Below the pieces are notes generated by a model. The model was not told the DNA's origin. It made no database searches and was given only the letters and a program-made list of their open reading frames with translations. From Flavobacteriales bacterium (GTDB taxonomy: Bacteria > Bacteroidota > Bacteroidia > Flavobacteriales_F > PHOS-HE28), in NCBI GenBank assembly GCA_016715995.1, contig JADJXF010000013.1:69636-133635 (forward strand): DNA of 64,000 nt. The letters run 5' to 3'. The position numbers were made by a program, and so were the translations under genes. Below are positions 1,426-44,349 of this stretch, piece after piece. Each line of letters begins with the position of its first letter. Within the stretch, counting starts at the first letter, position 1.

Positions 1426-3921
1426 TCATCGCAGCACAGTGATGTGCCCCGCGTGCTCCTGGCCATCATTCAGACGAAGCACGTAGTAGTACGTGCCGTC
1501 GGGAAGATCATCGGCCTTCCACTGATTCCGGTAGTTCTTCACGTCGTACACCTTGTTGCCCCACCGGCTGTAGATGCTGAGCTCGTTGCTCCAGAACTCG
1601 ATGTTGCGGATTACGAAGTAGTCATTGCTCTGGTCACCATTGGGCGATATCACGTTCGGGATGGTGATGTCCGGCGGGAAGATGAGGTATTGCGTGCTCA
1701 CGGTGTCCGTGCAGCCGTCAGCTGCGGTCACGATCAGCACCACGTTGTAGGTGAAGGGGTTCCCGAAAGTCCAAGAGGGATTCTGAACATCGCTACCGCC
1801 CTGGCCGCCGAAGTCCCATTCCCAGCCCACGATGGTACTGCCTGTCACGGTGCTCAGGTCGGTGAAATCCACGGTGGTGTTCATGGGCTGCGGCGAGGGC
1901 GGTGTGAACGTGAAGGCGGCCACCGGGCTGCTGCCCACCTGCACATTGAACGGTGCGGACGTGCCGGTGCAGCCTTCCGCATTGGTCACGGTGACCGTGT
2001 AGGCGCCGGTGCCCACGGTGATGGAGGGCGTAGTGGCTTCGTTGCTCCAGGTGTACTGCTCATACGGCTCGGTGGTGCTGAGCACCGCGAGCGCACCGCC
2101 GCAGCTGAACGACGGTCCGGTGATCACTGGTGCGGGGTTAGGCGCTGCGGTGACGGTGATGGGGTCGGAGGTGAGCGGGCAATTCCCGTAGGCCACGGTC
2201 ACAGTGTATGTGCCCACGCCCACTTGCACATTGGGGCCGAACAGGTTGCCGGGCTGCCACACATAGGTGTCAAAGCCAGCAGGCGCGCTCAGCGAAGCCA
2301 GTCCGCCGCTGCACACCACTGGATTGCCACTGATGTTTATGGGGCCTTGTGGTGAAGGCGTCACCGTCACGGTGATGGTGGTGTCGTAGGTGCAGCCGAA
2401 ATTATCCGTGATGGTGAAGGTGTAGTCGAACACGCCGGGGGTCACGCCAGCAACTGTGGCGTTGAAGGGATTGTTCGGATCGTTCACGAGGTTCGCGCCT
2501 GACCAAACGGCGGAGTCGGCGGTCTGCCCGAGGTTCGGAGTGTAGACCGTTAGGCTGGGGAAGAGCGCCGGGTTGAAGGTCAGCGACCAGTCGCATAGGT
2601 AGCCATTGTCGATGGCGAACAAGTCGGTCACCGTAAACGTCCAAACACCATTGAGGGGGCAACCGATGAGGTTGCTGAAGGGCTGCACGCTCTCATAGGT
2701 GCCGGCGGGCACGGTGCCGCCGCTGTTGTCCTCCCATGTGCCGTTGGTGGCGGTTGGGCTCCAGCAATACTCCCAGCACTCCCCTTGAACGTTCGGCGTG
2801 CCTTCGTTGTCCACCGGAACTCCGATGTAGGTGCCGCCACCACCTTGTTGATGCATGACGGTGGTCTGACCATTCGGGCAGGAGATCTGAATGACCAGAT
2901 CGCCCATGTAGCTGTGCTCCATGGTTGCGCACACGCTGAGCAGGTCGAGGGGGTTCGTGAGCGTTTGCCCGGGACTGAACTGTGTGAAGGTGATGGAGGT
3001 GCTGAATGGCACGCCCTGCAGATCGGGCAGGAAGATGCCACTACCCAGGTTGCTTTCCGGCAACGCCGACCAGGTGATAGCGGTGGGGTCGGTGGTCAGC
3101 GAAACGCTCTCGCCTTGGCAAATGGTGGTACTGGGGGTGGTGCCCGTGAAGATCGGAGTTGTGCTCACCAGTACCTGGAGGTCAACCAGGTTAAGGCTGG
3201 AGCACCCGTTGTCATCGATGACCTCGACCTGAACGACGTACTCGGCCGGATCAGTGAATGCGTGTTGCACAATAGGGCCAGTAGCTGTGGTGCCATCCGC
3301 GTAATCCCAGTTGTACTCCGTGACCGTGAAACCTGCAGCGGCGAAAGAAGCGCTCGCATCGAAGGTGATCACCTCATCCTGGCAGGCCAGCAATGGGATC
3401 GGGCTGTTGAATGTTGCGACAGCGGTCGGCGGCTCACAGGGCTGGAAGCAGGTGATATTGGCGGCGAAGTCGCCGGTGCCGGTGTTGTTGCTCGTGAAGA
3501 CCAAGGTGAGGCAGCCGGTAGGGTTGGCGAAGCTGGCGGAGATGATGCCTGGGGAGTCACCGCCGCTCCAAGTGCCAATCAGCGGCGCGGAGGTGTTGTC
3601 GCCATCATAGATGCTCATCTGGTCTGCCGGCGCCACTCCGGCAGTGCTCAGGTTGAAGATGACCCACTGCAGGGAGATGGCCGGACCGCTTCCATCAGGA
3701 CAAATGACCGTGGTGAAGTTCTCGTTGTTGTCATAGGGTCCCCCGTTGCCATTGCTGTCGAGGAACGCGCCTTGACAAGCGGTGACGCTGGGTTCGCTCA
3801 TGTAATACTCCTGAGCGGTCACCCCGGACACGCTCAGAGCCAATACTGCTGTCGTAAGAACCCTGCACTGCCACATGTTGCTGTCTTTAATGAAAGGGAA
3901 GCCTCCCGAAAAGGCCGCCAA
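1426..3921 (-). CDS. Large secreted repeat protein (PKD/Ig-like beta-sandwich repeats) with a T9SS type-B C-terminal sorting domain
   Basis: 831 aa with an N-terminal signal peptide (MWQCRVLTTAVLALSVSGVTAQ) and Thr/Gly/Val-rich beta repeats. The C-terminus PNVISPNGDQSNDYF...IYSRWGNKVY...DGTYYYVLRL...HITVLR matches the gliding-motility-associated CTD (TIGR04131-like) consensus. Confidence 0.8.
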   Translation of the reverse strand: MAAFSGGFPFIKDSNMWQCRVLTTAVLALSVSGVTAQEYYMSEPSVTACQGAFLDSNGNGGPYDNNENFTTVICPDGSGPAISLQWVIFNLSTAGVAPADQMSIYDGDNTSAPLIGTWSGGDSPGIISASFANPTGCLTLVFTSNNTGTGDFAANITCFQPCEPPTAVATFNSPIPLLACQDEVITFDASASFAAAGFTVTEYNWDYADGTTATGPIVQHAFTDPAEYVVQVEVIDDNGCSSLNLVDLQVLVSTTPIFTGTTPSTTICQGESVSLTTDPTAITWSALPESNLGSGIFLPDLQGVPFSTSITFTQFSPGQTLTNPLDLLSVCATMEHSYMGDLVIQISCPNGQTTVMHQQGGGGTYIGVPVDNEGTPNVQGECWEYCWSPTATNGTWEDNSGGTVPAGTYESVQPFSNLIGCPLNGVWTFTVTDLFAIDNGYLCDWSLTFNPALFPSLTVYTPNLGQTADSAVWSGANLVNDPNNPFNATVAGVTPGVFDYTFTITDNFGCTYDTTITVTVTPSPQGPINISGNPVVCSGGLASLSAPAGFDTYVWQPGNLFGPNVQVGVGTYTVTVAYGNCPLTSDPITVTAAPNPAPVITGPSFSCGGALAVLSTTEPYEQYTWSNEATTPSITVGTGAYTVTVTNAEGCTGTSAPFNVQVGSSPVAAFTFTPPSPQPMNTTVDFTDLSTVTGSTIVGWEWDFGGQGGSDVQNPSWTFGNPFTYNVVLIVTAADGCTDTVSTQYLIFPPDITIPNVISPNGDQSNDYFVIRNIEFWSNELSIYSRWGNKVYDVKNYRNQWKADDLPDGTYYYVLRLNDGQEHAGHITVLR

Positions 3922-3951
3922 AATAAGCCCCTTCTGGAGACCGCCTCCGGG

Positions 3952-4992
3952 TCAGTTCATGCTATTCCTGTTCAGCCACACCACCTTGCCCTCCGATATC
4001 ACGCGGCCGTCCAGGGTAATGGCCTCAACGGCCACCATGTACATGCCATCCTCGCAATTGGCTCCGGTCCACTCCTGATCCAGGCCCGTGGAACTGAACA
4101 CCAATTGATTGGACTTCATGGAATACACCCGCACCAAGGTGCTGGCGAAGCCATTCTTGGGCTCGATCCGGTAGGTGTCGTTCGTGCCATCGCCGTTTGG
4201 GGTGAAAACGTTGGGCATGATCAGCTTAACCGGTTGCTCTTCCGCAGCACTTTCTGCGGGCGGCACAGTGGATTCCTGCTCACTGGCGGTTTCGGTCGTT
4301 GCATCCTCCACGCCGTCAGGCGAGGCGGTTCGTTGTCCAGCCTCCACTTCCTTGATCACCTGCTCGCTTAAGTCGGTGATGATCAGTTCCACCAATTCAG
4401 GATCAGTGTCCCCAGTCGAGGGCTGAACCGCCCCTAAGGCCAAGTTCAAATCTGCGGGATTGGTCGCTACCAATTCCGGCGTCTGTTTGGTAGACGTGGA
4501 GGTGAGCCTTGTTGGATTGCTGCCCGTGTCTGGGTTTCCGTCGATTGTAGCCGGTCCAGAAGAGCCCTCATTGGCGACGATTGCTTCCCGGTCTGGGATA
4601 GAAGATTCCGGTTGCGTTGCGGTTGTCTTGGCTGGTTCCTGTTTAGCTAGGGCGGCATCGCCATCACCCTGATTCAAAGCGAAGACCAGCGCTCCAACGG
4701 CCACCACGCCAGCCAGCCCGGCCGCCACCCAGCCATATCCGCCCAGCAAGCCGCCGCCCGCCGCGCCGTGACCCAATTGGCTGCTGATGCCCTGCCAAAC
4801 GCCAGGATCCACATTCACCTCATGCTGCTGGAAGCGGTCCTTGAACAGGTCGTTCGCCGAATCCGAGGCTGGGGCCGAGGTAAGCAGCCGCGCCTCAATC
4901 ACCTGCCATGTGGCGGGGTCCACCGGGGCCTCGTGGCCCTGGAAGCGCTCGCGGAACAGGTGGTTCATCTTATCCTTCATGGTCGTGCGCAT
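3952..4992 (-). CDS. Single-pass membrane protein that is a putative anti-sigma factor. It has an N-terminal cytoplasmic tandem motif, a Pro/Thr/Glu-rich linker and a C-terminal T9SS type-B CTD
   Basis: 346 aa, overlapping the 3' end of the upstream ECF sigma gene. Alternative starts exist at M5 and M9 (4980 and 4968). The motif LFRERFQGHEAPVDPATWQVIEARL recurs as LFKDRFQQHEVNVDPGVWQGISSQL. A transmembrane segment GWVAAGLAGVVAVGALVFAL follows. The C-terminus MPNVFTPNGDGTNDTY...GMYMVAVEAITLDGRV...VWLNR is a type-B CTD. Confidence 0.7.
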   Translation of the reverse strand: MRTTMKDKMNHLFRERFQGHEAPVDPATWQVIEARLLTSAPASDSANDLFKDRFQQHEVNVDPGVWQGISSQLGHGAAGGGLLGGYGWVAAGLAGVVAVGALVFALNQGDGDAALAKQEPAKTTATQPESSIPDREAIVANEGSSGPATIDGNPDTGSNPTRLTSTSTKQTPELVATNPADLNLALGAVQPSTGDTDPELVELIITDLSEQVIKEVEAGQRTASPDGVEDATTETASEQESTVPPAESAAEEQPVKLIMPNVFTPNGDGTNDTYRIEPKNGFASTLVRVYSMKSNQLVFSSTGLDQEWTGANCEDGMYMVAVEAITLDGRVISEGKVVWLNRNSMN

Positions 4993-5527
4993 ATGGTGCG
5001 GCCGCCTCTTTCGGCAGGAGCTTGCGCAGGTAGGCCCGCGCTTTCATGAATTGTGATTTCGAGGTGTTCTCCGAAATGCCCAGCTGATCCGCGATCTCCT
5101 TGTGCGGATAACCCTCGATGGCGAAGAGGTTGAAAACGGTCCGGTATCCTGGCGGCAGCGCCTGGATCAGGTCCATGAGTTCGTCGGTGCTCATGGTGGT
5201 GAGCACCTGCTCATCCACTTGGTGCAGATGCTCGGCCTCAGTGAGGTCCACGCTGTGGTCGTAGGGTTTGTTCCGCCGGATGTGGTCGAGCGCGGTGTTC
5301 ACCACAGTGCGTGCGATCCATCCGCCCAACGGGCCATCGCCCCGATAATGGTCCATCTTCTGAAAGACCTTCACGAAGCCGTCCTGGAGCATGTCCTGGG
5401 CCTGTTCCCTGTTGCCGGCGTAACGCATGCAGATGCTCATCATCTTCCGTGCATAGGCCTTGTACAGGGCCTTCTGCGCGATTGGGTCGCCAGCGATGCA
5501 GCCTGAAACCAGTTGTTCATCCGTCAT
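4970..5527 (-). CDS. ECF-type RNA polymerase sigma-70 factor
   Basis: 185 aa. Sigma70 region 2 is present (DMLQDGFVKVFQ...GWIARTVVNTALDHIRR) and region 4 (PPGYRTVFNLFAIEGYPHKEIADQLGISENTSKSQFMKAR). Confidence 0.85.
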   Translation of the reverse strand: MTDEQLVSGCIAGDPIAQKALYKAYARKMMSICMRYAGNREQAQDMLQDGFVKVFQKMDHYRGDGPLGGWIARTVVNTALDHIRRNKPYDHSVDLTEAEHLHQVDEQVLTTMSTDELMDLIQALPPGYRTVFNLFAIEGYPHKEIADQLGISENTSKSQFMKARAYLRKLLPKEAAAPYAHDHEG

Positions 5528-5631
5528 GACGGCTCACCGGTAGATGATGCAATCCGAGGCCCGGAGGTTGCCTAAGGCCGTGCGGGGGAAAAGTGAACCC
5601 GCAAGTTATCCTAGGTGCATCCGTGCTTGAT

Positions 5632-6123
5632 TTAGAGCAACAAGGCCACGGAGCCCATGCGCTTGATGGATTCAGCGGAACCCAGCGGCTGGAACACCAG
5701 CCGCCACACATAAATCCCTTGGGGCAGCACGGGTCCGCTGTTGGATAGGCTGCCATCCCAGCCCTCGCCGGGGTTGTTGGTGGAGTAGATCTCACGCCCC
5801 CAGCGGTCGAAGACATGGAAGAGATAGCCCTGCGTCACCACCTCACCAATCCGGGGATAGAACTTGTCATTCAAGCCATCGCCATTTGGCGTGAAGGCGC
5901 TGGGGGCCAGGGCAATGGGTGCTCGATGCTCTTCGGCAAAGGGGGGAGTGACCGGATCAGCATCCGAAACGGCGTCGGTGGGCGCATCCAATGCGTCTGG
6001 CAAGGGTTCGGCCTGCTGTGCGGGATCAATCGGCTTCTCACCCGTTCCGAATCCGGATTGCGCGCTGACGCCTACGCTAAAGATCAAGCAGGTCAGGAAA
6101 AGGGGGACAGAGTGGTGTCGCAT
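5632..6123 (-). CDS. Small secreted protein consisting essentially of a T9SS type-B CTD
   Basis: 163 aa with a signal peptide (LFLTCLIFSVGVSAQ) and an Asp/Pro/Ala-rich linker. The C-terminus PSAFTPNGDGLNDKFYP...VFDRWGREIY...QGIYVWRLVF matches the type-B CTD. Confidence 0.75.
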   Translation of the reverse strand: MRHHSVPLFLTCLIFSVGVSAQSGFGTGEKPIDPAQQAEPLPDALDAPTDAVSDADPVTPPFAEEHRAPIALAPSAFTPNGDGLNDKFYPRIGEVVTQGYLFHVFDRWGREIYSTNNPGEGWDGSLSNSGPVLPQGIYVWRLVFQPLGSAESIKRMGSVALLL

Positions 6124-11022: not shown

Positions 11023-12867
11023 ATGCGCTGGGGCCTGATTTTACCGATCGGCCTGCTGGCCGCGTGCTCGAATCCGGCAGACCGCGCGGTGAACCGCTGG
11101 GCGGATGAAAGGTTCTGGGCTTTGCTGGAAGCGCAGGACCTCCGTGATACCGAGAGGCTGTGCGCCCTTATGGAGGACAGCTCAGCGCTTGTTCGTGAAT
11201 CGGCAGCGCTCGCCTTTGCCAGCGCGCAATCGTCCGTTTCCATTCCATGCCTGCTCAAGGCGCTCAATGATCCGCAGCCTCGGGTGCGCGCCACCGCCGC
11301 TTTCGCGCTGGGCTTCGTGGCCGACAGTTCCGTTTGGAGCGAATTGCCGGACATCGCGATGAACGAGACGGACACTGCGGTGCAGCGTGCGCTGCTCAGC
11401 GCGTCCTTCCTGGCCATGCAGCGTACGGGCCGGCTCACGGACCCCAATGCCATCCTGCATTACCTGCGCAGCAGCCATGGGCATGAGCGGGTGCGCGCCG
11501 CCGATGCGCTGCGGCGCCTGTCGGACAGCCTTGTGCAGAAGGCGGGGAGCGACATCAACGCGATGATGAGCCAGGAAGGCACGGAGGTGAGGCAGTTCCT
11601 GATCCTCGCCATGCGCAAGCTGGGTACGTCCGCCGACATCGCGGAACTTCAGCGCATCGCGAGGGAGGGAATCGACTTCGGCGAGCGGGTGAACGCCGTG
11701 CGAGTCTGTGGCAAACTCATGGAGGGTGGGGATGGTGAGCGGCTCCTGTGGAACGCGGTATGGGACGAAGCAGCAGGTGATGCCGCGTTGGCTTGGCTGG
11801 CCGAGCGCTTACAAGTGGATGCACGCGCCAGCTTGCGCCACGCGCTCGAAAGCCCGGACACGCTGATGCGAATCGCGATGCTCGGGCTGGCCATGAAGCA
11901 CGGTGAGGAGCGAACGGCGGATAGCGCACGGGCGATGCTGAACGCCATCGCGGCTGTGGAGCGCGACGCCTTTCGAAGAGCGGCCGTCACCGCTGCGCGC
12001 GCCGAGGCTCCGCAGGAAGGGGACTTGTCAGCCTTCGTTGATTTGATGCAAGGCGATCTGCATCCGATGGAACGGCAGGCCGCGTTCCAAGGCGCCATGC
12101 GCATCGTGCGTGGCATCATGATGCGTTCGCGCTATGCTTCACGGGAGGCGCAGTACGCGCAGCTCAGCGAGGTGGCGGGCGTAGCGCTAAGCTCCGGCGA
12201 TGCGGGGCTCATCAGCGCAGCGGCGGAGTTGATCGCGGCCGAGGAGAGCGATGCGATTCGCCTGCTGCTTCCGCCGGCGCTCGAATCGAAGGCCCGCTCG
12301 GCACTGGAACCCCTCCGTGACCTGGAGGCGCTGCTGTTGCTGGACCAGGCTGTCGCCAAACGAGACGGCTTGCCAAGGCCCGCTCATCGCGCTCCACCAT
12401 TCAACCACCCGATCGATAAGGCGAAACTCCGGACATTGAAGCAGGGTCAGCGCTACCGCATCGTCACCAACAAAGGCGTCATCGTCATCGCAACGGATGT
12501 GGATGAGTGCCCCGGCAGCAGCCTCGCTTTCGACTCGCTTGTTACCGCAGGCTATTACAACGGCAAGGCCTTCCACCGCGTGGTGCCCAACTTCGTCATT
12601 CAAGGGGGCTGCCCGCGCGGCGATGGTTACGGCGGCATGCCTTGGACGCTGCGCACCGAGATTGGCCGTTCCTCCTTCACCGCTGGCTCAGTCGGGCTGG
12701 CGAGCGCTGGCCGCGATACGGAGAGCTGCCAGTTCTTCATCACTCACAGCGTCGCCCCGCATTTGGATGGCCGCTATACGCGCTTCGGCGAGGTGGTGGA
12801 GGGGATGGAGGTGGTGTGGAGGATCCAGGTGGGGGACCGGATGCTCCGAGTGGAGCAGGTGATGTAA
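11023..12867 (+). CDS. Lipoprotein fusing HEAT/PBS-lyase-like repeats to a C-terminal cyclophilin-type peptidyl-prolyl isomerase domain
   Basis: 614 aa with lipobox LLAACS. There are multiple helical repeats of the form VRxxAAxALG. The C-terminus FHRVVPNFVIQGGCPRGDGYGG...GSVGLASAGRDTESCQFFITHSVAPHLDGRYTRFGEVVEGMEVV is a cyclophilin PPIase signature. Confidence 0.75.
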   Translation: MRWGLILPIGLLAACSNPADRAVNRWADERFWALLEAQDLRDTERLCALMEDSSALVRESAALAFASAQSSVSIPCLLKALNDPQPRVRATAAFALGFVADSSVWSELPDIAMNETDTAVQRALLSASFLAMQRTGRLTDPNAILHYLRSSHGHERVRAADALRRLSDSLVQKAGSDINAMMSQEGTEVRQFLILAMRKLGTSADIAELQRIAREGIDFGERVNAVRVCGKLMEGGDGERLLWNAVWDEAAGDAALAWLAERLQVDARASLRHALESPDTLMRIAMLGLAMKHGEERTADSARAMLNAIAAVERDAFRRAAVTAARAEAPQEGDLSAFVDLMQGDLHPMERQAAFQGAMRIVRGIMMRSRYASREAQYAQLSEVAGVALSSGDAGLISAAAELIAAEESDAIRLLLPPALESKARSALEPLRDLEALLLLDQAVAKRDGLPRPAHRAPPFNHPIDKAKLRTLKQGQRYRIVTNKGVIVIATDVDECPGSSLAFDSLVTAGYYNGKAFHRVVPNFVIQGGCPRGDGYGGMPWTLRTEIGRSSFTAGSVGLASAGRDTESCQFFITHSVAPHLDGRYTRFGEVVEGMEVVWRIQVGDRMLRVEQVM

Positions 12868-12941
12868 CGTCGGCAGCGCCTGCCCAACTATCTTTCCCAC
12901 GCTGCCAGGCGGCACCGCGCACCGCCGATCGGCTTACCCCG

Positions 12942-15695
12942 ATGCCCTCCCTCACCGACACCCGGCTGCGACAGCATTACAATGCTGCCCGGCTGCGCTC
13001 CCACACGTGGGACCAGCTCAAGCTGGCTGCGATGGACCTCGATGAGGGGCGCGGCGCTCCGGAGGAAGTGGCGGCTATCCTGAACGACCTGCACTCCATC
13101 GAGCTCTACTGGGCCTATCCCGGGCGCGAGACCGTTCGCCGCCTGCAAGAGATGCTGCGCACGAGGGAGCACCATGGGCTGCACCTCGCGGTGAACAATG
13201 TGGTGCGTGTCCTCAGCAGCGGGGCCTTCCGCAGCGATCCGGCCTCCTTGGCCGACCCGCTCTCCGGTGCGCGCGAGCTGCTGGCCGAGGAAGAGGAGAA
13301 GCCCAAGCCCAACTACTTCGAGGTGCTCTTCGTGGATGAGCTGGATGCGGAAGAGGAAGCAGCGCTGAGGCAGAAGCTGCACAAGTGCCGGGACAAGAGC
13401 GACGCCTTCGTGTACGATGCTCTCGTGGTGCGCACGGTGCAGGATGCGCTCATCGCGCTGCTCTTCAACCACAACATCCAGGCGGTGGTGGCGCGCTTCG
13501 GGGTGCCCTTCGCAAGCGCCAACAACGGCGGCGTGCTGCGCGAATTCACGCGGGCCATCGACGCCCTCGAACCAGGGAGCCTAGGCCGTGCTCACATGGG
13601 TCCGTTCCTTGGCCGCCTCACGCGGTGGTTCCGGCCCGAAGTGGACCGCTATTACGTCACCGACACTCCGCTCCCCGAGCTCGAGGACGCCACCCTCGCC
13701 AGCTTCCGCCGCATCTTCTATCGCACCGAGGACCTCACCGAGCTGCACCTCCCTATTCTCCGCGGCATCCAGGAGAGGTACGAGACGCCCTTCTTCACCG
13801 CGCTGAAGGAATACAGCAAGCGACCGATGGGCGTCTTCCACGCCATGCCGATCAGCCGCGGCAACAGCGTGTTCAAGAGCCGGTGGATCCAGGACTTCGG
13901 CGAGTTCTACGGGCGCAACCTCTTCCTCGCGGAGACCAGTGCCACCACAGGCGGACTCGACTCGCTGCTGCAGCCCACCGGCCCGTTGAAGAGGGCGCAG
14001 GAGCTGGCTGCGCGCGCCTTCGGGAGCCAGCAGACCTTCTTCGCCACCAACGGCACCAGCTCCAGCAACAAGATCGTGGTGCAAGCCCTGGTGGAGCCGG
14101 GCGACATCGTGCTCATCGACCGCGACTGCCACAAGAGCCACCACTACGGCATGGTGCTCAGTGGCGCCTACCCCGTTTACCTGCACAGCTTTCCCTTGAA
14201 GAAGTACAGCATGTACGGCGCGGTTCCGTTGGAGCACATCCGCGACCAGCTCTTCAAGCTGAAGAAGGCCGGCCGCCTCGACAAGGTGAAGATGCTGCTG
14301 CTCACCAACAGCACCTTCGATGGTGTGGTGTACAATGTGGAGCGTGTGATGGAACAGGTCCTCGCGATCAAGCCGGACATCGTGTTCCTCTGGGATGAGG
14401 CCTGGTGGGCATTCGGACGTTTCAGCTATGTGCTGCGCCAACGCACGGCCATGCATGTGGCGCAGAAGCTCGCCCGCAAGTACCGCGCGCTCGAGTACAA
14501 GGCTGCGTACGCGAGGCACATCGCTTCCTTGAAGTCGGGTGAGGCGCCGCGCCTGCCGGACCCCGACAAGGTGCGCATCCGCGTGTATGCCACGCAGAGC
14601 ACGCATAAGACGCTCACCTCGCTGCGCCAAGGGAGCATGATTCACATCTGGGATGAGGACTTCGCGCGCAAGAGCGAGGCCAGCTTCCACGAGGCGTACA
14701 TGACGCACACCAGCACCAGCGCCAACTACCAGATCCTCGCGAGCATGGACGTGGGTCGCCGTCAGGTCGAATTCGAAGGCTTTGAGTTGGTCGAGAAGGC
14801 CATAGAACTTGGATTGTTGCTTCGCCGCACGGTGCGCGAGCATCCGAAGCTGAAGCGCTGGTTCGATATCATCACCATCGGTGAGCTGATACCCGGCGCC
14901 TACCGACAGAGCGGACTCGACAGCTATTACCGCCGTGACCAGGGATGGAACGAGATCGAGAAGGCATGGGCGGAGGATGAGTTCGCCGTGGACCCCACCA
15001 AGATCAACCTGTACACCGGCAAGACCGGCATCGATGGCGACACCTTCAAGAACAAGTTCTTGATGGACAAGCACCAGATCCAGATCAACAAGACCTCGCG
15101 CAACTCGGTGCTCTTCATGACCAACATCGGCACCACGCGCGGTTCATTGGCTTACCTCACCAAGGTGCTGCTGCAGATCGCCGAGGAGCTGGAGCAGCGC
15201 AATGCGGGCTTCGAGCCCGACGACAAGCGCGCCCACCTCGACAAGATCCGCACGCTCGTGGAGGAGGTTCCGCCCCTGCCGGACTTCTCCAGCTTCCACC
15301 GCAGCTTCCAAGGGCAGCCTGGTGTCCCCGGTGGCGACCTGCGATCGGCCTATTTCCTCGCATACGACGAGAAGCGCTGCGAGCACGTGAAGCTCGCGGA
15401 CAGCTTGGCGGCGCTGCGCAGCGAACGTGAGTTGGTCTCGGCCAGCTTTGTGATCCCCTATCCGCCCGGCTTCCCGGTGCTGGTGCCTGGGCAGGTCATC
15501 AACCAGGAGATCATCGACTTTCTGCTGGCGCTGGATGTGAAGGAGATTCACGGCTACCGGCCGGAGCTCGGCCTGCGTGTGTTCACCGAGGCAGCGCTTG
15601 GCAGGCAACGGACAACGACGGCGATGGGGGGGATGCGTGCGCCGACAACGCCCCCTGCGAATGGCGTAGGCCGGAAGAAGACCAAACGACCATGA
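12942..15695 (+). CDS. PLP-dependent Orn/Lys/Arg decarboxylase family enzyme (fold type I, OKR_DC_1-like) with an N-terminal extension of about 120 aa
   Basis: The start is set at MPSLTDTRL within track ORF 12507..15695, whose 5' part overlaps the upstream gene. The wing domain reads YFEVLFVDEL... The major domain reads FHAMPISRGNSVF...ATNGTSSSNKIVVQALVEPGDIVLIDRDCHKSHHYG. The PLP-lysine motif ATQSTHKTLTSLRQGSMIH is present. The C-terminus ends GRKKTKRP. Confidence 0.8.
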   Translation: MPSLTDTRLRQHYNAARLRSHTWDQLKLAAMDLDEGRGAPEEVAAILNDLHSIELYWAYPGRETVRRLQEMLRTREHHGLHLAVNNVVRVLSSGAFRSDPASLADPLSGARELLAEEEEKPKPNYFEVLFVDELDAEEEAALRQKLHKCRDKSDAFVYDALVVRTVQDALIALLFNHNIQAVVARFGVPFASANNGGVLREFTRAIDALEPGSLGRAHMGPFLGRLTRWFRPEVDRYYVTDTPLPELEDATLASFRRIFYRTEDLTELHLPILRGIQERYETPFFTALKEYSKRPMGVFHAMPISRGNSVFKSRWIQDFGEFYGRNLFLAETSATTGGLDSLLQPTGPLKRAQELAARAFGSQQTFFATNGTSSSNKIVVQALVEPGDIVLIDRDCHKSHHYGMVLSGAYPVYLHSFPLKKYSMYGAVPLEHIRDQLFKLKKAGRLDKVKMLLLTNSTFDGVVYNVERVMEQVLAIKPDIVFLWDEAWWAFGRFSYVLRQRTAMHVAQKLARKYRALEYKAAYARHIASLKSGEAPRLPDPDKVRIRVYATQSTHKTLTSLRQGSMIHIWDEDFARKSEASFHEAYMTHTSTSANYQILASMDVGRRQVEFEGFELVEKAIELGLLLRRTVREHPKLKRWFDIITIGELIPGAYRQSGLDSYYRRDQGWNEIEKAWAEDEFAVDPTKINLYTGKTGIDGDTFKNKFLMDKHQIQINKTSRNSVLFMTNIGTTRGSLAYLTKVLLQIAEELEQRNAGFEPDDKRAHLDKIRTLVEEVPPLPDFSSFHRSFQGQPGVPGGDLRSAYFLAYDEKRCEHVKLADSLAALRSERELVSASFVIPYPPGFPVLVPGQVINQEIIDFLLALDVKEIHGYRPELGLRVFTEAALGRQRTTTAMGGMRAPTTPPANGVGRKKTKRP

Positions 15696-40568: not shown

Positions 40569-42617
40569 TCACCGGTTGGGCGATCCGTCGGGTCTCGCCT
40601 CGGCCACGATGGTGTGCAGATCGGCGGCAGCGATGGGTTTCACCAGGTGGTGATCGAAGCCCGCTTCGCTGCTCCGTATGCGGTCTTCCGCCTGTCCCCA
40701 TCCGCTCAGCGCCACCAACGTTGCAGAGGCGCCCCAGGTTGTCTCCCGCATCCGCGTGCAGGCGTTATATCCGTCCATCACAGGCATGCCCAGGTCCATG
40801 AGCACGACGTTGGGCAGCAGTTCATCTCCTTCCTCCAGCGCTTGCATGCCGTTGTGCGCCACGCGCACCTCATGGCCGAAGCGGCTCAGCAACATGGCCA
40901 TCATGTTGGCGGCGTCCTCGTTGTCGTCCACGATCAAGATGCGCAAGGGGGCCTGCTTGGCCTTCTGGTCTTCTTGCAGCGTGGAGGCTGTTGCCGGCGC
41001 TTCGCGTGGTGGGGCCAGCGGCAGGGTCACCATGAAACTGCTGCCTTTGCCAAGCCCATCCGAGCGCGCTTCGATCCGGCCGCCGTGCATGCCCACAAGG
41101 TGCTTCACGATGTTAAGGCCGATGCCCAGGCCGCCTTGCACGCGATCGTTGGCGCGCTCCACCTGTGCGAACATGTCGAAGACCTTCACGAGCTGATCGG
41201 GCGCAATGCCGATGCCGTTATCCTCGACCGCGATGCGGACTTCGTGCGCGTCCACCACGGTGCGCACGGTGATGATCCCACCGCGATCGGTGTATTTCGC
41301 GGCGTTGTTCAACAGGTTGGCGAAGACCTGCGTCAGCCGCATGATATCCCCTTCCACCCGGATGGGTGCGTCAGCGAACTCCTGCACCAGGTCGTGGTCC
41401 TGCCGTTCGATCAGCGGGCGGCTGGTCTCCACCGCTTGGTCCAGCGCATCGCGCAGGTCCACCTGTGCCAGCTGCAGATCAACGGTGCCGCGCGAGATGC
41501 GGCTGAGGTCCATCAGTTCATCGATCAGCCGCACCATCTGGTCAAGCTGCCGTTTCATCATGCCGTGCGCCTGGTCCCAGGTGGCCTTGTCCTGTTCGGC
41601 GAGCGAGAGCAGCTCGAGTCCGTTGCGCAAGGGTGCGAGCGGATTGCGCAGCTCGTGCGCGAGCGTGGCCAGGAACTCGCTCTTGCGGCGGTCGGCCTGA
41701 TGCAGCGATTCCTGCGCCTCCTTCAAGGTGCTGATGTCATAGAAATAGCACACCACGCCGAATTCGCCATCGGGCAGGGTGATGCGCTCGATCCGCCAAT
41801 CGTATGACTCCCTTGCGTTGATGTCGCGACGTTGTTCGTTGGTGTCAGGGCTGGAGAAGGGTGTTCCGGTGAGGAGGGTATCGCGGAAGTGCGCGATCAC
41901 CTCGCTCGCGAAGGGGTCGGCCCAGAGCACGTGAATGGCTTCCGCGAAGTCACGACCGATCAAGGGGTTCACATGGGCGAAAACGGCCCGCGCCGCTGCA
42001 TTCACCTGCTGGATGCGCGACCGTGCATCAACCACATAGATGCCGAACGGGGCGTTCTCGATCAGGCTGAAGAAGGTCGCGTGGTTGCGGCGCAGAAGGT
42101 CCTGCGCCAGCTCGCGCTCGTTGATCACCTCGGTCAATCGCCGGTTCAGGCGATCGGCCACATCGGTGAGCTCGTGCTGCTGCACCGAGCTGATCAGCAG
42201 GGCCTCGTTGATGGCGGAGCTCATCCTACGGAACGCATCGGTCTCCGTGACCTGGATCATGAGGCCGCTGAGGCGCGCATGCCCGGCATCGATGGGCCAG
42301 CAGGTGAAGGCCCCGTAGTACGTGTTCGCTTCATCGCCTTCCACGAACACATGGGCTTCGCCCTCGCCCGTGCGCAGCACGCGGTCGAGCAGAGCGATGG
42401 AACGGAGGCTCTGCGGGAAGAGATCCTCGAAGGGCCGGCCGATCAGCTGTTCTTCGCTCTTGCCGAGCAAGGCGCAGAAGGCCGGGTTGATGGACCAAAC
42501 CAAATGATCCGGGCCTTCCACTTGTGCCATGGGTAAGGGCGCATTCTCCATGACCGCCTGGAGCACGCTTTGTTCGAGCGCCTGCTTGCCAGTGCCATTG
42601 GGTGCTTCCGTGCTCAT
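40569..42617 (-). CDS. Hybrid sensor histidine kinase: PAS domains, HisKA, HATPase_c and a C-terminal receiver domain
   Basis: 682 aa. The H-box reads FLATLAHELRNPLAP. The N/G boxes read LNNAAKYT...GGLGIGLNIVKHLVGMHGG. The receiver reads LRILIVDDNEDAANMM...VVLMDLGMPVMDG. Confidence 0.85.
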   Translation of the reverse strand: MSTEAPNGTGKQALEQSVLQAVMENAPLPMAQVEGPDHLVWSINPAFCALLGKSEEQLIGRPFEDLFPQSLRSIALLDRVLRTGEGEAHVFVEGDEANTYYGAFTCWPIDAGHARLSGLMIQVTETDAFRRMSSAINEALLISSVQQHELTDVADRLNRRLTEVINERELAQDLLRRNHATFFSLIENAPFGIYVVDARSRIQQVNAAARAVFAHVNPLIGRDFAEAIHVLWADPFASEVIAHFRDTLLTGTPFSSPDTNEQRRDINARESYDWRIERITLPDGEFGVVCYFYDISTLKEAQESLHQADRRKSEFLATLAHELRNPLAPLRNGLELLSLAEQDKATWDQAHGMMKRQLDQMVRLIDELMDLSRISRGTVDLQLAQVDLRDALDQAVETSRPLIERQDHDLVQEFADAPIRVEGDIMRLTQVFANLLNNAAKYTDRGGIITVRTVVDAHEVRIAVEDNGIGIAPDQLVKVFDMFAQVERANDRVQGGLGIGLNIVKHLVGMHGGRIEARSDGLGKGSSFMVTLPLAPPREAPATASTLQEDQKAKQAPLRILIVDDNEDAANMMAMLLSRFGHEVRVAHNGMQALEEGDELLPNVVLMDLGMPVMDGYNACTRMRETTWGASATLVALSGWGQAEDRIRSSEAGFDHHLVKPIAAADLHTIVAEARPDGSPNR

Positions 42618-42621
42618 GGCT

Positions 42622-43416
42622 TCAGTCCAGGGCCGAACGCACCGGAATACCGGTGGTCAATGCGCCCAAGCCCTCGAGCCCACCCGTCTTCAGCGCGATA
42701 CCCTGGGCGGTGACGTCGTATTCGCGGATGACCTTGCTGTGATCGCCGCCACGCATCTTCGACACCATGAGGATCTTGCGCAGCGCACCGTCGATCTCCA
42801 CATAGCGAAGGCGGATGATGTCGTCGGTGAGGAAGGAGATGCTGTAGTTGCTCGCTGGCGGCTTCACGAAGGATTCCTCCAGCATCAATGTGCTCATGAT
42901 GGTAACGCCATGGCCGGTGAGCGCCACGAACATGCGGTAGAGCGACTCTTCGAAATCCTCCCGGAAATCGGGCGCGAGCGCGCGCTCGAAACCGGCGAGC
43001 GAGTCGATCACCAAGCGCTTCGCGCCCACGCGCCTCACGGCTTTCATGATCTCGAAGAGCGCCTCGTCCACCGTCAGGTCCAAGGGCCGCAGGTACAGGA
43101 TCTCGAGCTTGCCGTTCGTGCGCGAGGTGTCCAGGTCCAGTCCGAAGGTGTTCGCGCGGGAGGCGTATTCAGCGGGCCGCTCCTCGAACACGGCGATGAT
43201 GGCCGCTTCGCCTTGTCGCAGGCCCTCAGCGATGAACTGGGTGCAGAGGATCGACTTTCCGGTGCCGCTCGCGCCGGCCACAAGGATGCTGTCGCCCTCC
43301 GGGACGTCGGCCGCCTGGATTCGCCGAAACCCTTGTCCCGCAAGCCTCTTCGCGTGATTCGCACACTGCCCGCACATCCCCGGCACCGGATCCGTGAATG
43401 CGGGGCCGCCACCCAT
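42622..43416 (-). CDS. Single-domain KaiC-like RecA-superfamily ATPase
   Basis: The start is set at MGGGPAF within track ORF 42622..43686; an alternative start is MCGQ at 43377. The Walker A motif is ILVAGASGTGKSILCTQF. The KaiC-domain layout is present (FEERPAEY...GVTIMSTLMLEESF...LRYVEIDGALRKILMVSKMRGGDH). Its stop is 4 nt upstream of the kinase start. Confidence 0.7.
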   Translation of the reverse strand: MGGGPAFTDPVPGMCGQCANHAKRLAGQGFRRIQAADVPEGDSILVAGASGTGKSILCTQFIAEGLRQGEAAIIAVFEERPAEYASRANTFGLDLDTSRTNGKLEILYLRPLDLTVDEALFEIMKAVRRVGAKRLVIDSLAGFERALAPDFREDFEESLYRMFVALTGHGVTIMSTLMLEESFVKPPASNYSISFLTDDIIRLRYVEIDGALRKILMVSKMRGGDHSKVIREYDVTAQGIALKTGGLEGLGALTTGIPVRSALD

Positions 43417-43452
43417 TCCGTTCGACACGGACAACCCTAAAACCACCACATC

Positions 43453-44349
43453 ATGAGCACTCCAACCTGTCCCCGGCGTTTCGCGAAGCAGGCGCGCCCG
43501 ATGATTCTGGCGCTCGCTGCCGCATTCATGCTCGCTGCTTGCGAGAGCGGCCCCTCTGAGGGCGAACTGGCCGCGCGTGCTGAAACCGAGAAGCTGAAGG
43601 ACCAGCTTCAGAGCCGCGATTCCCTCATCGGTGAGATGTCGGTGTCGTTCGATGAGATAGAGAAGAGCATCGCGATGATGGACCATCGCGAGATGATCCT
43701 GGGAGAGATCACGACCGGGGAGATGGACATCGACAAGCGCAAGAAGGTCGTTCGGGACCTTCAGCTCATGAACGGCTTGATGCAGGAGAGCCGCGACCGC
43801 ATCGCCGAGCTCACAAAGCGACTGGATAGGAGCAAGATCGAGGCGAGCGGACTGCGCAAGAAGCTGAAGGAGCTGGACGCGATGCTCGCTTCGCGCGATT
43901 CCTCAATCTCGATCATGAAGGATGGATTGTTGGCAAAGGACTTCCAGATCGAACAGGTGAACACGCAGCTTACAGCGATGGAGCTTGAAGTGGCCAAGCG
44001 CGAAGCCTTCATTGAGCAGCAGACCAACGAGATGAACGCGGCATGGTACGTGGTGGGGACGAGCAAGGAGCTCGAGGAGCGCGGTGTGGTGACCCGGACG
44101 GGCGGCATCATCGGCATTGGCAAGACCGCGCATATGAGCGGCGAGGTCCAACAAGGAGAATTCAAGCAAGTGGATGCGCGCCAAGTGACCAGGGTGCCCC
44201 TTAGCGCGAAGAAGGCGCGGTTGGTGAGCGAGCATCCCAAGGACAGCTACGCCATGGTGGAGGAAGGGGATCTGTTCGCCTATCTGGAGATCAAGGATCC
44301 GGCTTCGTTCTGGAAGTTGAGCCGATACATGGTGGTCGAGGTGAAGTGA
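43453..44349 (+). CDS. Coiled-coil lipoprotein (hypothetical)
   Basis: 298 aa with lipobox MLAAC. The probable true start is MILALAAAF at 43501. Long heptad-like charged helices are followed by a small C-terminal globular region. Confidence 0.45.
   Translation: MSTPTCPRRFAKQARPMILALAAAFMLAACESGPSEGELAARAETEKLKDQLQSRDSLIGEMSVSFDEIEKSIAMMDHREMILGEITTGEMDIDKRKKVVRDLQLMNGLMQESRDRIAELTKRLDRSKIEASGLRKKLKELDAMLASRDSSISIMKDGLLAKDFQIEQVNTQLTAMELEVAKREAFIEQQTNEMNAAWYVVGTSKELEERGVVTRTGGIIGIGKTAHMSGEVQQGEFKQVDARQVTRVPLSAKKARLVSEHPKDSYAMVEEGDLFAYLEIKDPASFWKLSRYMVVEVK

Follow-up and report, generated by a model that had tools for sequence, protein, structure and literature searches.

Can a type IX secretion system (T9SS) sorting domain serve as the sensing end of a transcriptional regulator? 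The question is raised by a 64,000-nucleotide (nt; 64-kb) stretch of the genome of a Flavobacteriales bacterium (assembly GCA_016715995.1, contig JADJXF010000013.1, positions 69,636 to 133,635), here called the window, in which the gene of an extracytoplasmic function (ECF) sigma factor overlaps that of a membrane protein ending in a type-B T9SS C-terminal domain (CTD). A first inspection of the letters (the original prediction) had proposed that this partner protein is an anti-sigma-like regulator whose periplasmic end is recognised by the T9SS machinery. We put the probability at roughly 0.55 that the locus encodes an ECF sigma/anti-sigma pair resembling the Dma family of Bacteroidota, in which the outer-membrane barrel has been replaced by a type-B CTD that docks with the T9SS. 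Its two parts can be judged separately from the sequences: an anti-sigma role of the partner, with binding of the sigma factor, is likely, and for a real engagement of the T9SS by the CTD the chances appear even. A coupling of sigma activity to T9SS function or cargo load is plausible, because the pair lies among genes for type-B CTD cargo, one of which shares the sigma-type promoter in six species. The parts of the pair are as follows; residue numbers of the partner refer throughout to its 346-amino-acid (aa) open reading frame (ORF), and model confidence is the predicted local distance difference test (pLDDT).

4970..5527, minus strand: ECF sigma factor, 185 aa (Sigma70_r2, Sigma70_r4_2, TIGR02937)
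4970..4980, minus strand: 11-nt overlap of the sigma stop codon and the partner start (ATGAAGGATAA), a junction compared in 45 loci
3952..4980, minus strand: probable anti-sigma factor, 342 aa from the start conserved in homologues and used in the 342-aa NCBI form
4885..4965, minus strand: N-terminal repeat 1, residues 10-36, predicted cytoplasmic helix-loop-helix with invariant R16, F17, H20, E21, V24 and W29 (modelled helices 5-17 and 26-38)
4774..4854, minus strand: N-terminal repeat 2, residues 47-73, predicted helix-loop-helix with invariant F54, H57 and W66 (modelled helices 45-55 and 63-72)
4675..4737, minus strand: single transmembrane helix, residues 86-106, Kyte-Doolittle maximum 2.31
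4231..4674, minus strand: tether, residues 107-254, disordered (pLDDT ~40-60) and rich in A, P, E, V and T
4330..4401, minus strand: conserved amphipathic helix within the tether, residues 198-221, VExIIxxLTEQV with invariant V201 and I204, pLDDT 81-86
3955..4230, minus strand: CHU_C / type-B T9SS CTD, residues 255-346 (PF13585), modelled as a beta-sandwich

The first gene of the pair is an ECF sigma factor by several measures. Its product scores 62.8 bits for Sigma70_r2, 61.3 bits for Sigma70_r4_2 and 103 bits against TIGR02937 (sigma70-ECF, cutoff 42.9), and its 185 aa hold only the sigma-2 and sigma-4 regions, the composition of ECF (group 4) factors of ~180-200 aa; the sigma_PG0214 and Sig70_bacteroi1 models both scored below their own cutoffs against it. 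The longest ORF of the partner runs from a start at 4992 (3952..4992, minus strand; 346 aa). When the junction is compared among the loci, the start that is kept across species falls at the ATG at 4980 (MKD...), in agreement with the 342-aa form annotated by NCBI, and the 11-nt junction is retained in most of the loci compared. The two genes are translationally coupled. The overlap that had been predicted between them exists and is conserved, at 11 nt rather than 23.

The arrangement recurs in many uncultured Flavobacteriales. A protein search with the partner gave 181 matches. Of the 120 listed, almost every one spans the full length (327-363 aa, 37-72% identity) and nearly all carry PF13585; wherever the source is named, it is a Flavobacteriales metagenome-assembled genome without exception. 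A genome scan recovered 49 syntenic loci, all from uncultured Flavobacteriales; comparisons of junctions and promoters cover 45 of these loci, and statistics of hydropathy and tether length cover 116 homologues. Since there are 181 homologue matches and 49 syntenic loci, the arrangement is not the work of chance, and orthologous pairs do keep the CTD, a check suggested with the original prediction: architecture and gene order are held in the homologues and in the loci. Across loci the sigma factor is 79-95% identical and the partner 34-55%. Within the partner, mean pairwise identity is 64% in the CTD, 60% in the N-terminal repeats, 41% in the transmembrane helix, 34% in the mid-tether helix and 10% in the linker segments.

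What kind of protein is the partner? Its first 85 aa are hydrophilic and hold two direct repeats of 27 aa each (N10-L36 and N47-L73), which share 15 of 27 residues and are built on the motif LF+ERFxxHExxVDPxxWxxI. They are followed by a single strong hydrophobic helix, which is exactly 21 aa long in 116/116 homologues and has an acidic flank on its C-terminal side. The predicted duplicated motif in the cytoplasmic N-terminus and the one transmembrane helix were both recovered, and the predicted cytoplasmic N-terminal domain is present at a size of ~85 aa instead of 120. We favour a topology with the N-terminus inside and the C-terminus outside, because the 85-aa hydrophilic N-terminus is predicted to be folded, the flank past the helix is acidic and an extracytoplasmic domain lies at the C-terminus. 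The tether that follows measures 149.5 +/- 8 aa; we infer from its constant length and free sequence that it has the look expected of a periplasm-spanning connector. Its conserved helix (198-221) could be a cleavage site, a docking site or a piece of an extended type-B secretion signal.

This layout bears on the simplest alternative, that the partner is ordinary T9SS cargo whose hydrophobic segment is a cleaved signal anchor, with the overlap with the sigma gene a coincidence. The C-terminal CHU_C domain is what one would expect of cargo. The helix, on the other hand, begins only at residue 86, behind a conserved hydrophilic 85-aa domain (60% identity); the first 60 aa hold no hydrophobic stretch in the window protein or its homologues, in which the 12-residue Kyte-Doolittle maximum of that segment is <=1.38, and no conserved cleavage motif lies past the helix. 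Between helix and CTD there is only disordered tether and no cargo domain, and the linkage to a sigma gene is kept in 45 loci and in 7/7 distant relatives (see below). On these four grounds (helix position, conserved N-terminal domain, lack of a passenger domain and sigma linkage) we reject ordinary cargo, the scenario that had been named as fatal to the original prediction, as very unlikely.

The N-terminal repeats also define a wider family. An exhaustive search of 1.84 billion cluster representatives with a profile of the repeats returned 204 proteins (cluster representatives); a few WD40 proteins in the match list were false positives and were discarded. Matches beyond the 330-370-aa family have 1-6 copies of the motif and one helix, followed by either PKD and CHU_C domains or an OMP_b-brl_2 barrel; CHU_C is present in 18/35 distant members scanned, and the barrel-type relatives were found at whole-library E-values of 2e-13 to 3e-6, their N-termini being homologous to the repeats of the window partner. 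Seven relatives were examined in their genomic context:

P0226: barrel type, Chitinophagales, after an ECF sigma gene
P0248: barrel type, after an ECF sigma gene
P0259: barrel type, from cultured Nonlabens spongiae (CP019344.1), after an ECF sigma gene
P0230: PKD+CHU_C type, after an ECF sigma gene
P0235: PKD+CHU_C type, after an ECF sigma gene; its CTD passes TIGR04131 (37 bits, cutoff 35)
P0240: CHU_C-like end, after an ECF sigma gene
P0262: from Hymenobacter, after an ECF sigma gene

All seven sit directly after an ECF sigma factor of 182-213 aa, whatever their C-terminal domain. Their sigma factors are 38-54% identical to that of the window (44-48% for the barrel-type relatives), which is high for ECF factors. 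This identity hints, indirectly, at the ECF21 group, to which the sigma partners of Dma proteins belong. Because 7/7 relatives are sigma-adjacent and differ in their C-termini, the repeat module is tied to the sigma factor and not to a particular C-terminal domain, which is the behaviour expected of a sigma-binding anti-sigma module. Together with the conserved 11-nt overlap and a hydrophobic segment that is not a signal peptide, this sigma adjacency bears out the anti-sigma-like architecture that had been predicted.

Two side observations concern these relatives. A YhhN-family gene adjoins both a barrel-type pair in Chitinophagales (locus L050, 6744..7388) and a CHU_C-type pair (locus L052, 1358..2050); the shared neighbour hints that the two architectures can hold orthologous loci in which the C-terminal domain has been swapped. 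Residues 436-543 of P0226 (L050), in its barrel, weakly resemble PorT/SprT (NCBIfam NF052311, E = 4e-4, far under the cutoff), a resemblance that probably reflects only the common class of eight-stranded barrels.

The barrel-type relatives connect the pair to a published system. Pardue et al. reported in 2024 that Dma1 of B. thetaiotaomicron is encoded after the ECF21 sigma factor Das1, that its N-terminal 40 aa pull down Das1, and that behind these residues come a single helix, an extended disordered stretch and an OMP_b-brl_2 barrel of eight strands that sits in the outer membrane, with C-terminal fragments occurring in vesicles (PMC10927553). According to that paper, the Dma family occurs only in Bacteroidota and its reach across both membranes is without precedent (PMC10927553). 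Like its members, the window partner is encoded directly downstream of a Bacteroidota ECF sigma gene; its cytoplasmic N-terminal module is short, a single transmembrane helix leads into a long disordered tether, and its C-terminus would go to the outer membrane. The Dma definition is matched by the barrel-type relatives recovered here, and the window partner fits all of it but the barrel: it ends in a CHU_C/type-B sorting domain instead of OMP_b-brl_2 and is therefore not a strict Dma member. Its attachment to the outer membrane would go through T9SS proteins and not through insertion of the BAM (beta-barrel assembly machinery) type. It differs further in that its N-terminal motif is duplicated, its tether is shorter (~150 aa) and contains a conserved helix, and the neighbouring, apparently regulated genes encode T9SS adhesin-like cargo, whereas those of Dma encode NigD lipoproteins. 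The arrangement had been called one not seen described; its general form has been published as the Dma family (PMC10927553), and the CTD-bearing version was not found in the literature, in that neither the Dma papers nor the other literature searched mentions a T9SS CTD in an anti-sigma role.

These comparisons also bear on whether the partner inhibits the sigma factor at all. It might instead be a sigma-regulated, co-transcribed membrane protein, such as an envelope tether or an adhesin accessory, whose repeats have some other cytoplasmic role. That would suit an N-terminal domain unlike any known anti-sigma domain, and indeed no Pfam or NCBIfam match to zf-HC2/ASD class I, RskA or FecR was found in the partner at E-values up to 0.1. 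Yet an overlapping place right after the sigma gene is the classic position of an anti-sigma gene and adjacency survives changes of the C-terminus in 7/7 relatives, the N-terminal 40 aa of Dma1 and Reo, of the same architecture, bind sigma, and in the partner the N-terminal module, at 60% identity, is second in conservation only to the CTD. We consider such a non-inhibitory role improbable.

Does the genomic setting point to the T9SS? All three CHU_C proteins of the window fall within 1426..6123, that is, the partner and the products of the two genes that flank the pair:

5632..6123, minus strand: small secreted protein of 163 aa, with a signal peptide, a ~50-aa linker and CHU_C only (from ORF, Pfam and hydropathy)
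1426..3876, minus strand: type-B T9SS cargo with two PKD domains, a proprotein-convertase P-domain and CHU_C; 75 nt separate it from the partner gene upstream
L005 2380..5364, L033 2473..5358, L039 1265..4216, L047 3254..5374 and L048 2423..5383: large upstream NIDO/PKD/CHU_C genes of other loci

The gene order in the loci is lepA (divergent), an optional CTD protein, sigma, partner, one or two large PKD/NIDO/P-domain/CHU_C proteins and metF, and the pair sits in every locus among genes for adhesin-like proteins with type-B CTDs. In other species the position of the 163-aa protein is occupied by a NIDO/PKD/CHU_C protein of 700-1000 aa with an orthologous CTD; the cargo-less form in the window could be a PorA-like free CTD or a rival for the docking site of the anti-sigma factor. 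On the downstream side, one or two orthologues of the cargo gene trail the pair in nearly all loci. Its longest ORF in the window, 1426..3921, begins at a TTG at 3921, and the ATG at 3876 is the likelier start, giving a typical signal peptide (MWQCRVLTTAVLALSVSGVTAQE). The 75-nt gap holds one weak hairpin with a T-run (3926..3942) that is no better than chance, and the downstream gene may be co-transcribed with the pair across it.

A promoter motif ties the sigma gene to some of these neighbours:

5544..5572, minus strand: putative autoregulated ECF-type promoter GGCAAC-N16-GCATCAT, the sole match in the window

Two-block promoters with an AAC-containing first box are typical of ECF sigma factors. 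GGCAAC-N16-GCATCAT precedes the sigma gene in 45/45 loci, with position weight matrix (PWM) scores of 22-50 and the first box 37-45 nt before the ATG, mostly 42-45 (45 nt in the window). A second copy lies just before the upstream NIDO/PKD/CHU_C cargo gene in six species (L005, L006, L033, L039, L048 and L047, the last with a variant first box, GAAGCAAC). At a PWM score of at least 13, the 556 kb of loci contain 52 matches on the gene strand, at sigma genes and four cargo genes, and zero on the opposite strand. Related boxes (GGCAAC-N16-CGCATC, GCGTC or CCATC) precede the sigma genes of the distant relatives. The presence of the motif before the sigma gene (45/45) and before a cargo gene (six species) supports a sigma factor that is autoregulated and has at least one neighbouring type-B cargo gene in its regulon. 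The downstream cargo gene of the window has no sigma-type promoter of its own (best PWM score -7), so its regulation by the sigma factor would depend solely on operon-like spacing. As a separate observation, most of L001-L049 have a GTAACTT / GTACCTTTG box ~30 nt upstream of the GGCAAC box (window ~5600..5610, minus strand); it resembles the housekeeping TAnnTTTG -7 element of Bacteroidota, and the ECF-type promoter may therefore be paired with a basal one in tandem.

Is the C-terminal domain of the partner, then, a genuine T9SS signal? It scores 40.3 bits against Pfam PF13585 (CHU_C, cutoff 27) and its model is a beta-sandwich whose pLDDT exceeds 90 (residues 255-340). Foldseek matched the model to 8glk_D, 8gl8_D and 8qb1, of which 8glk_D is a T9SS CTD solved on the translocon (TM-score 0.68, normalised to the target). 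Alignment by eye with the CTDs of the two neighbouring cargo proteins shows that the positions PNxFTPNGDGxND, W-G, DGxY and terminal GxVxLxR are kept and that the RWG motif is lost. The domain is 61-63% identical where the cargo CTDs of the same genomes are 54-59% identical, and by this measure it evolves as a working cargo CTD does. Type-B CTDs are bound by PorP/SprF-like outer-membrane proteins and stay attached to them (PMC9143113). Since they remain bound to such barrels, a type-B CTD could plausibly, by analogy, do the work of a built-in barrel in anchoring a protein to the outer membrane.

Several observations weigh against the favoured reading. Against NCBIfam TIGR04131 the CTD reaches 27 bits, under the cutoff of 35, so that the predicted "canonical" type-B CTD holds for the Pfam match and the fold and not for this threshold or the RWG motif; the NCBI name is nonetheless that of a gliding-motility CTD protein. 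Hydropathy across the homologues reveals no cleavable N-terminal Sec signal peptide in the partner, and all published T9SS substrates carry one (PMC12618676); full secretion is impossible for a membrane-anchored protein. No T9SS core gene or PorP/SprF gene was present among the 20 larger window ORFs scanned, nor did the interval from lepA to metF, in the window or in the loci, contain a PorP/SprF-like shuttle gene. An adjacent gene of this kind is frequent but not obligatory; type-B CTDs require cognate shuttles, and orphan type-B substrates exist (PMC12618676). On the regulatory side, the N-terminal domain has no Pfam, NCBIfam or solved-structure match and, modelled alone, no confident tertiary fold (predicted TM-score, pTM, 0.25), and the positive-inside evidence for the topology is weak. 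The likeness to Dma1 and Reo is one of architecture, together with barrel-type relatives that share it, and not of direct sequence comparison, and the single-repeat Nonlabens barrel protein was missed by the repeat profile. Finally, the small CTD gene of the window (5632..6123) lacks a sigma-type promoter (best PWM score -27).

Taken from this list, the divergence of the CTD (low TIGR04131 score, lost RWG motif), the missing Sec signal and the lack of a nearby PorP/SprF gene would all suit a different anti-sigma factor, one in which a CHU_C-like sandwich has been co-opted as an ordinary periplasmic sensor of a ligand or protein, with no T9SS recognition or anchoring. Sensor modules are often Ig-like sandwiches, and the structures matched by Foldseek are of a generic kind. 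A sensor of this kind would not, however, explain why the type-B motif positions are kept, why the domain is conserved as much as true cargo CTDs in the same genomes, or why the pair always lies among type-B cargo genes. The relatives, moreover, have PKD+CHU_C, a typical cargo C-terminus, one of which passes the NCBIfam cutoff, and since the sister architecture has an outer-membrane barrel at its end, what the two seem to have in common is targeting to the outer membrane. We therefore regard a periplasmic sensor as possible yet rather unlikely, and retain the Dma-like pair with a docking CTD.

How does such a pair compare with other systems that link secretion to ECF sigma factors? In PorA / PorXY-SigP of Porphyromonas gingivalis a T9SS CTD is likewise a regulatory element in a pathway that ends at an ECF sigma factor (PMC7712824, PMC12152298), and the PorA CTD acts with PorY, so that a CTD can serve as a periplasmic regulatory ligand (PMC12152298). 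A regulatory role for a CTD thus has, by analogy, a precedent. PorA, however, is a Sec-exported type-A CTD protein that signals to the histidine kinase PorY and the response regulator PorX and from there to SigP, whereas the window CTD is of type B and is part of the putative anti-sigma polypeptide itself. With type-B cargo (SprB/SprF, PG1035/PorP) the window partner shares the CTD family, the motif positions and the beta-sandwich fold (PMC9143113, PMC12618676). Type-B CTDs stay on an outer-membrane barrel partner, and such a barrel would here supply the anchor. The window partner differs from such cargo in having neither a Sec signal peptide nor a passenger domain, in an N-terminus that is anchored in the inner membrane, in the absence of an adjacent PorP/SprF gene and in a CTD below the NCBIfam cutoff. 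FecR-type trans-envelope signalling by TonB-dependent transducers offers a third parallel: there, too, the state of an outer-membrane machine is read by an anti-sigma factor of the inner membrane, which in turn governs the ECF sigma factor for the genes linked to that machine. The window partner, in contrast, has no FecR domain, and the outer-membrane contact would be made by the anti-sigma factor's own tethered CTD, not by the periplasmic signalling domain of a receptor.

How might the pair work? In the mechanism we propose, the N-terminal repeats would hold the sigma factor at the inner membrane, the tether would cross the periplasm so that the protein bridges both membranes as Dma1 does, and the CTD would dock at the outer membrane with parts of the T9SS, either a PorP/SprF-like shuttle or the SprA translocon, or both. 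Docking on a PorP/SprF-like protein is proposed because type-B CTDs are anchored by PorP-like barrels. If the outer end changed, be it that docking is lost, that cargo CTDs compete for it, or that the end is pulled and cleaved, the tether would undergo proteolysis and the sigma factor would be set free, as has been proposed for Dma1. The freed sigma factor would then transcribe the operon to which it belongs, with the type-B adhesin-like gene downstream probably part of it; in some species the upstream cargo gene would be transcribed too. A more specific version, which we put forward only tentatively and judge unlikely in its full form, has the partner CTD compete with the CTDs of the neighbouring adhesin-like cargo, and perhaps with the 163-aa protein, for the translocon or a PorP/SprF-like shuttle; once the machinery engages the CTD, a motor-driven pull or an exposed tether would bring about cleavage and free the sigma factor, whose activity would report spare T9SS capacity and set cargo expression. 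If true, it would be the first case in which a regulator of transcription carries, as part of itself, a secretion signal of the very system whose cargo it controls.

Two further features of the window lie apart from the pair. A PAS-containing hybrid histidine kinase (682 aa) adjoins a KaiC-like ATPase (354 aa) at 40569..43686 on the minus strand; the two may belong to clock-like or KaiC-linked signalling unrelated to the sigma pair. On the plus strand, an ORF of 1062 aa (12507..15695) matches Orn/Lys/Arg decarboxylase only from residue 427, and either its start is over-extended in GC-rich sequence, which is probable, or an uncharacterised N-terminal region is present.

The carriers of the CTD form known so far are uncultured Flavobacteriales or metagenomes only. 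How Bacteroidota match the expression of T9SS cargo, type-B adhesins especially, to the state of the machine is largely unexplained outside PorXY-SigP/PorA of P. gingivalis, and a sigma/anti-sigma pair with a sorting domain as its sensing end, set amid type-B cargo that shares the sigma promoter, offers a direct route to test such regulation. The partner also calls into question the stated rule that CTD proteins are all passengers exported by Sec. If the reading is true, dual-membrane anti-sigma factors would be modular, with an outer end that either is a barrel itself or gains the use of one by way of the T9SS.

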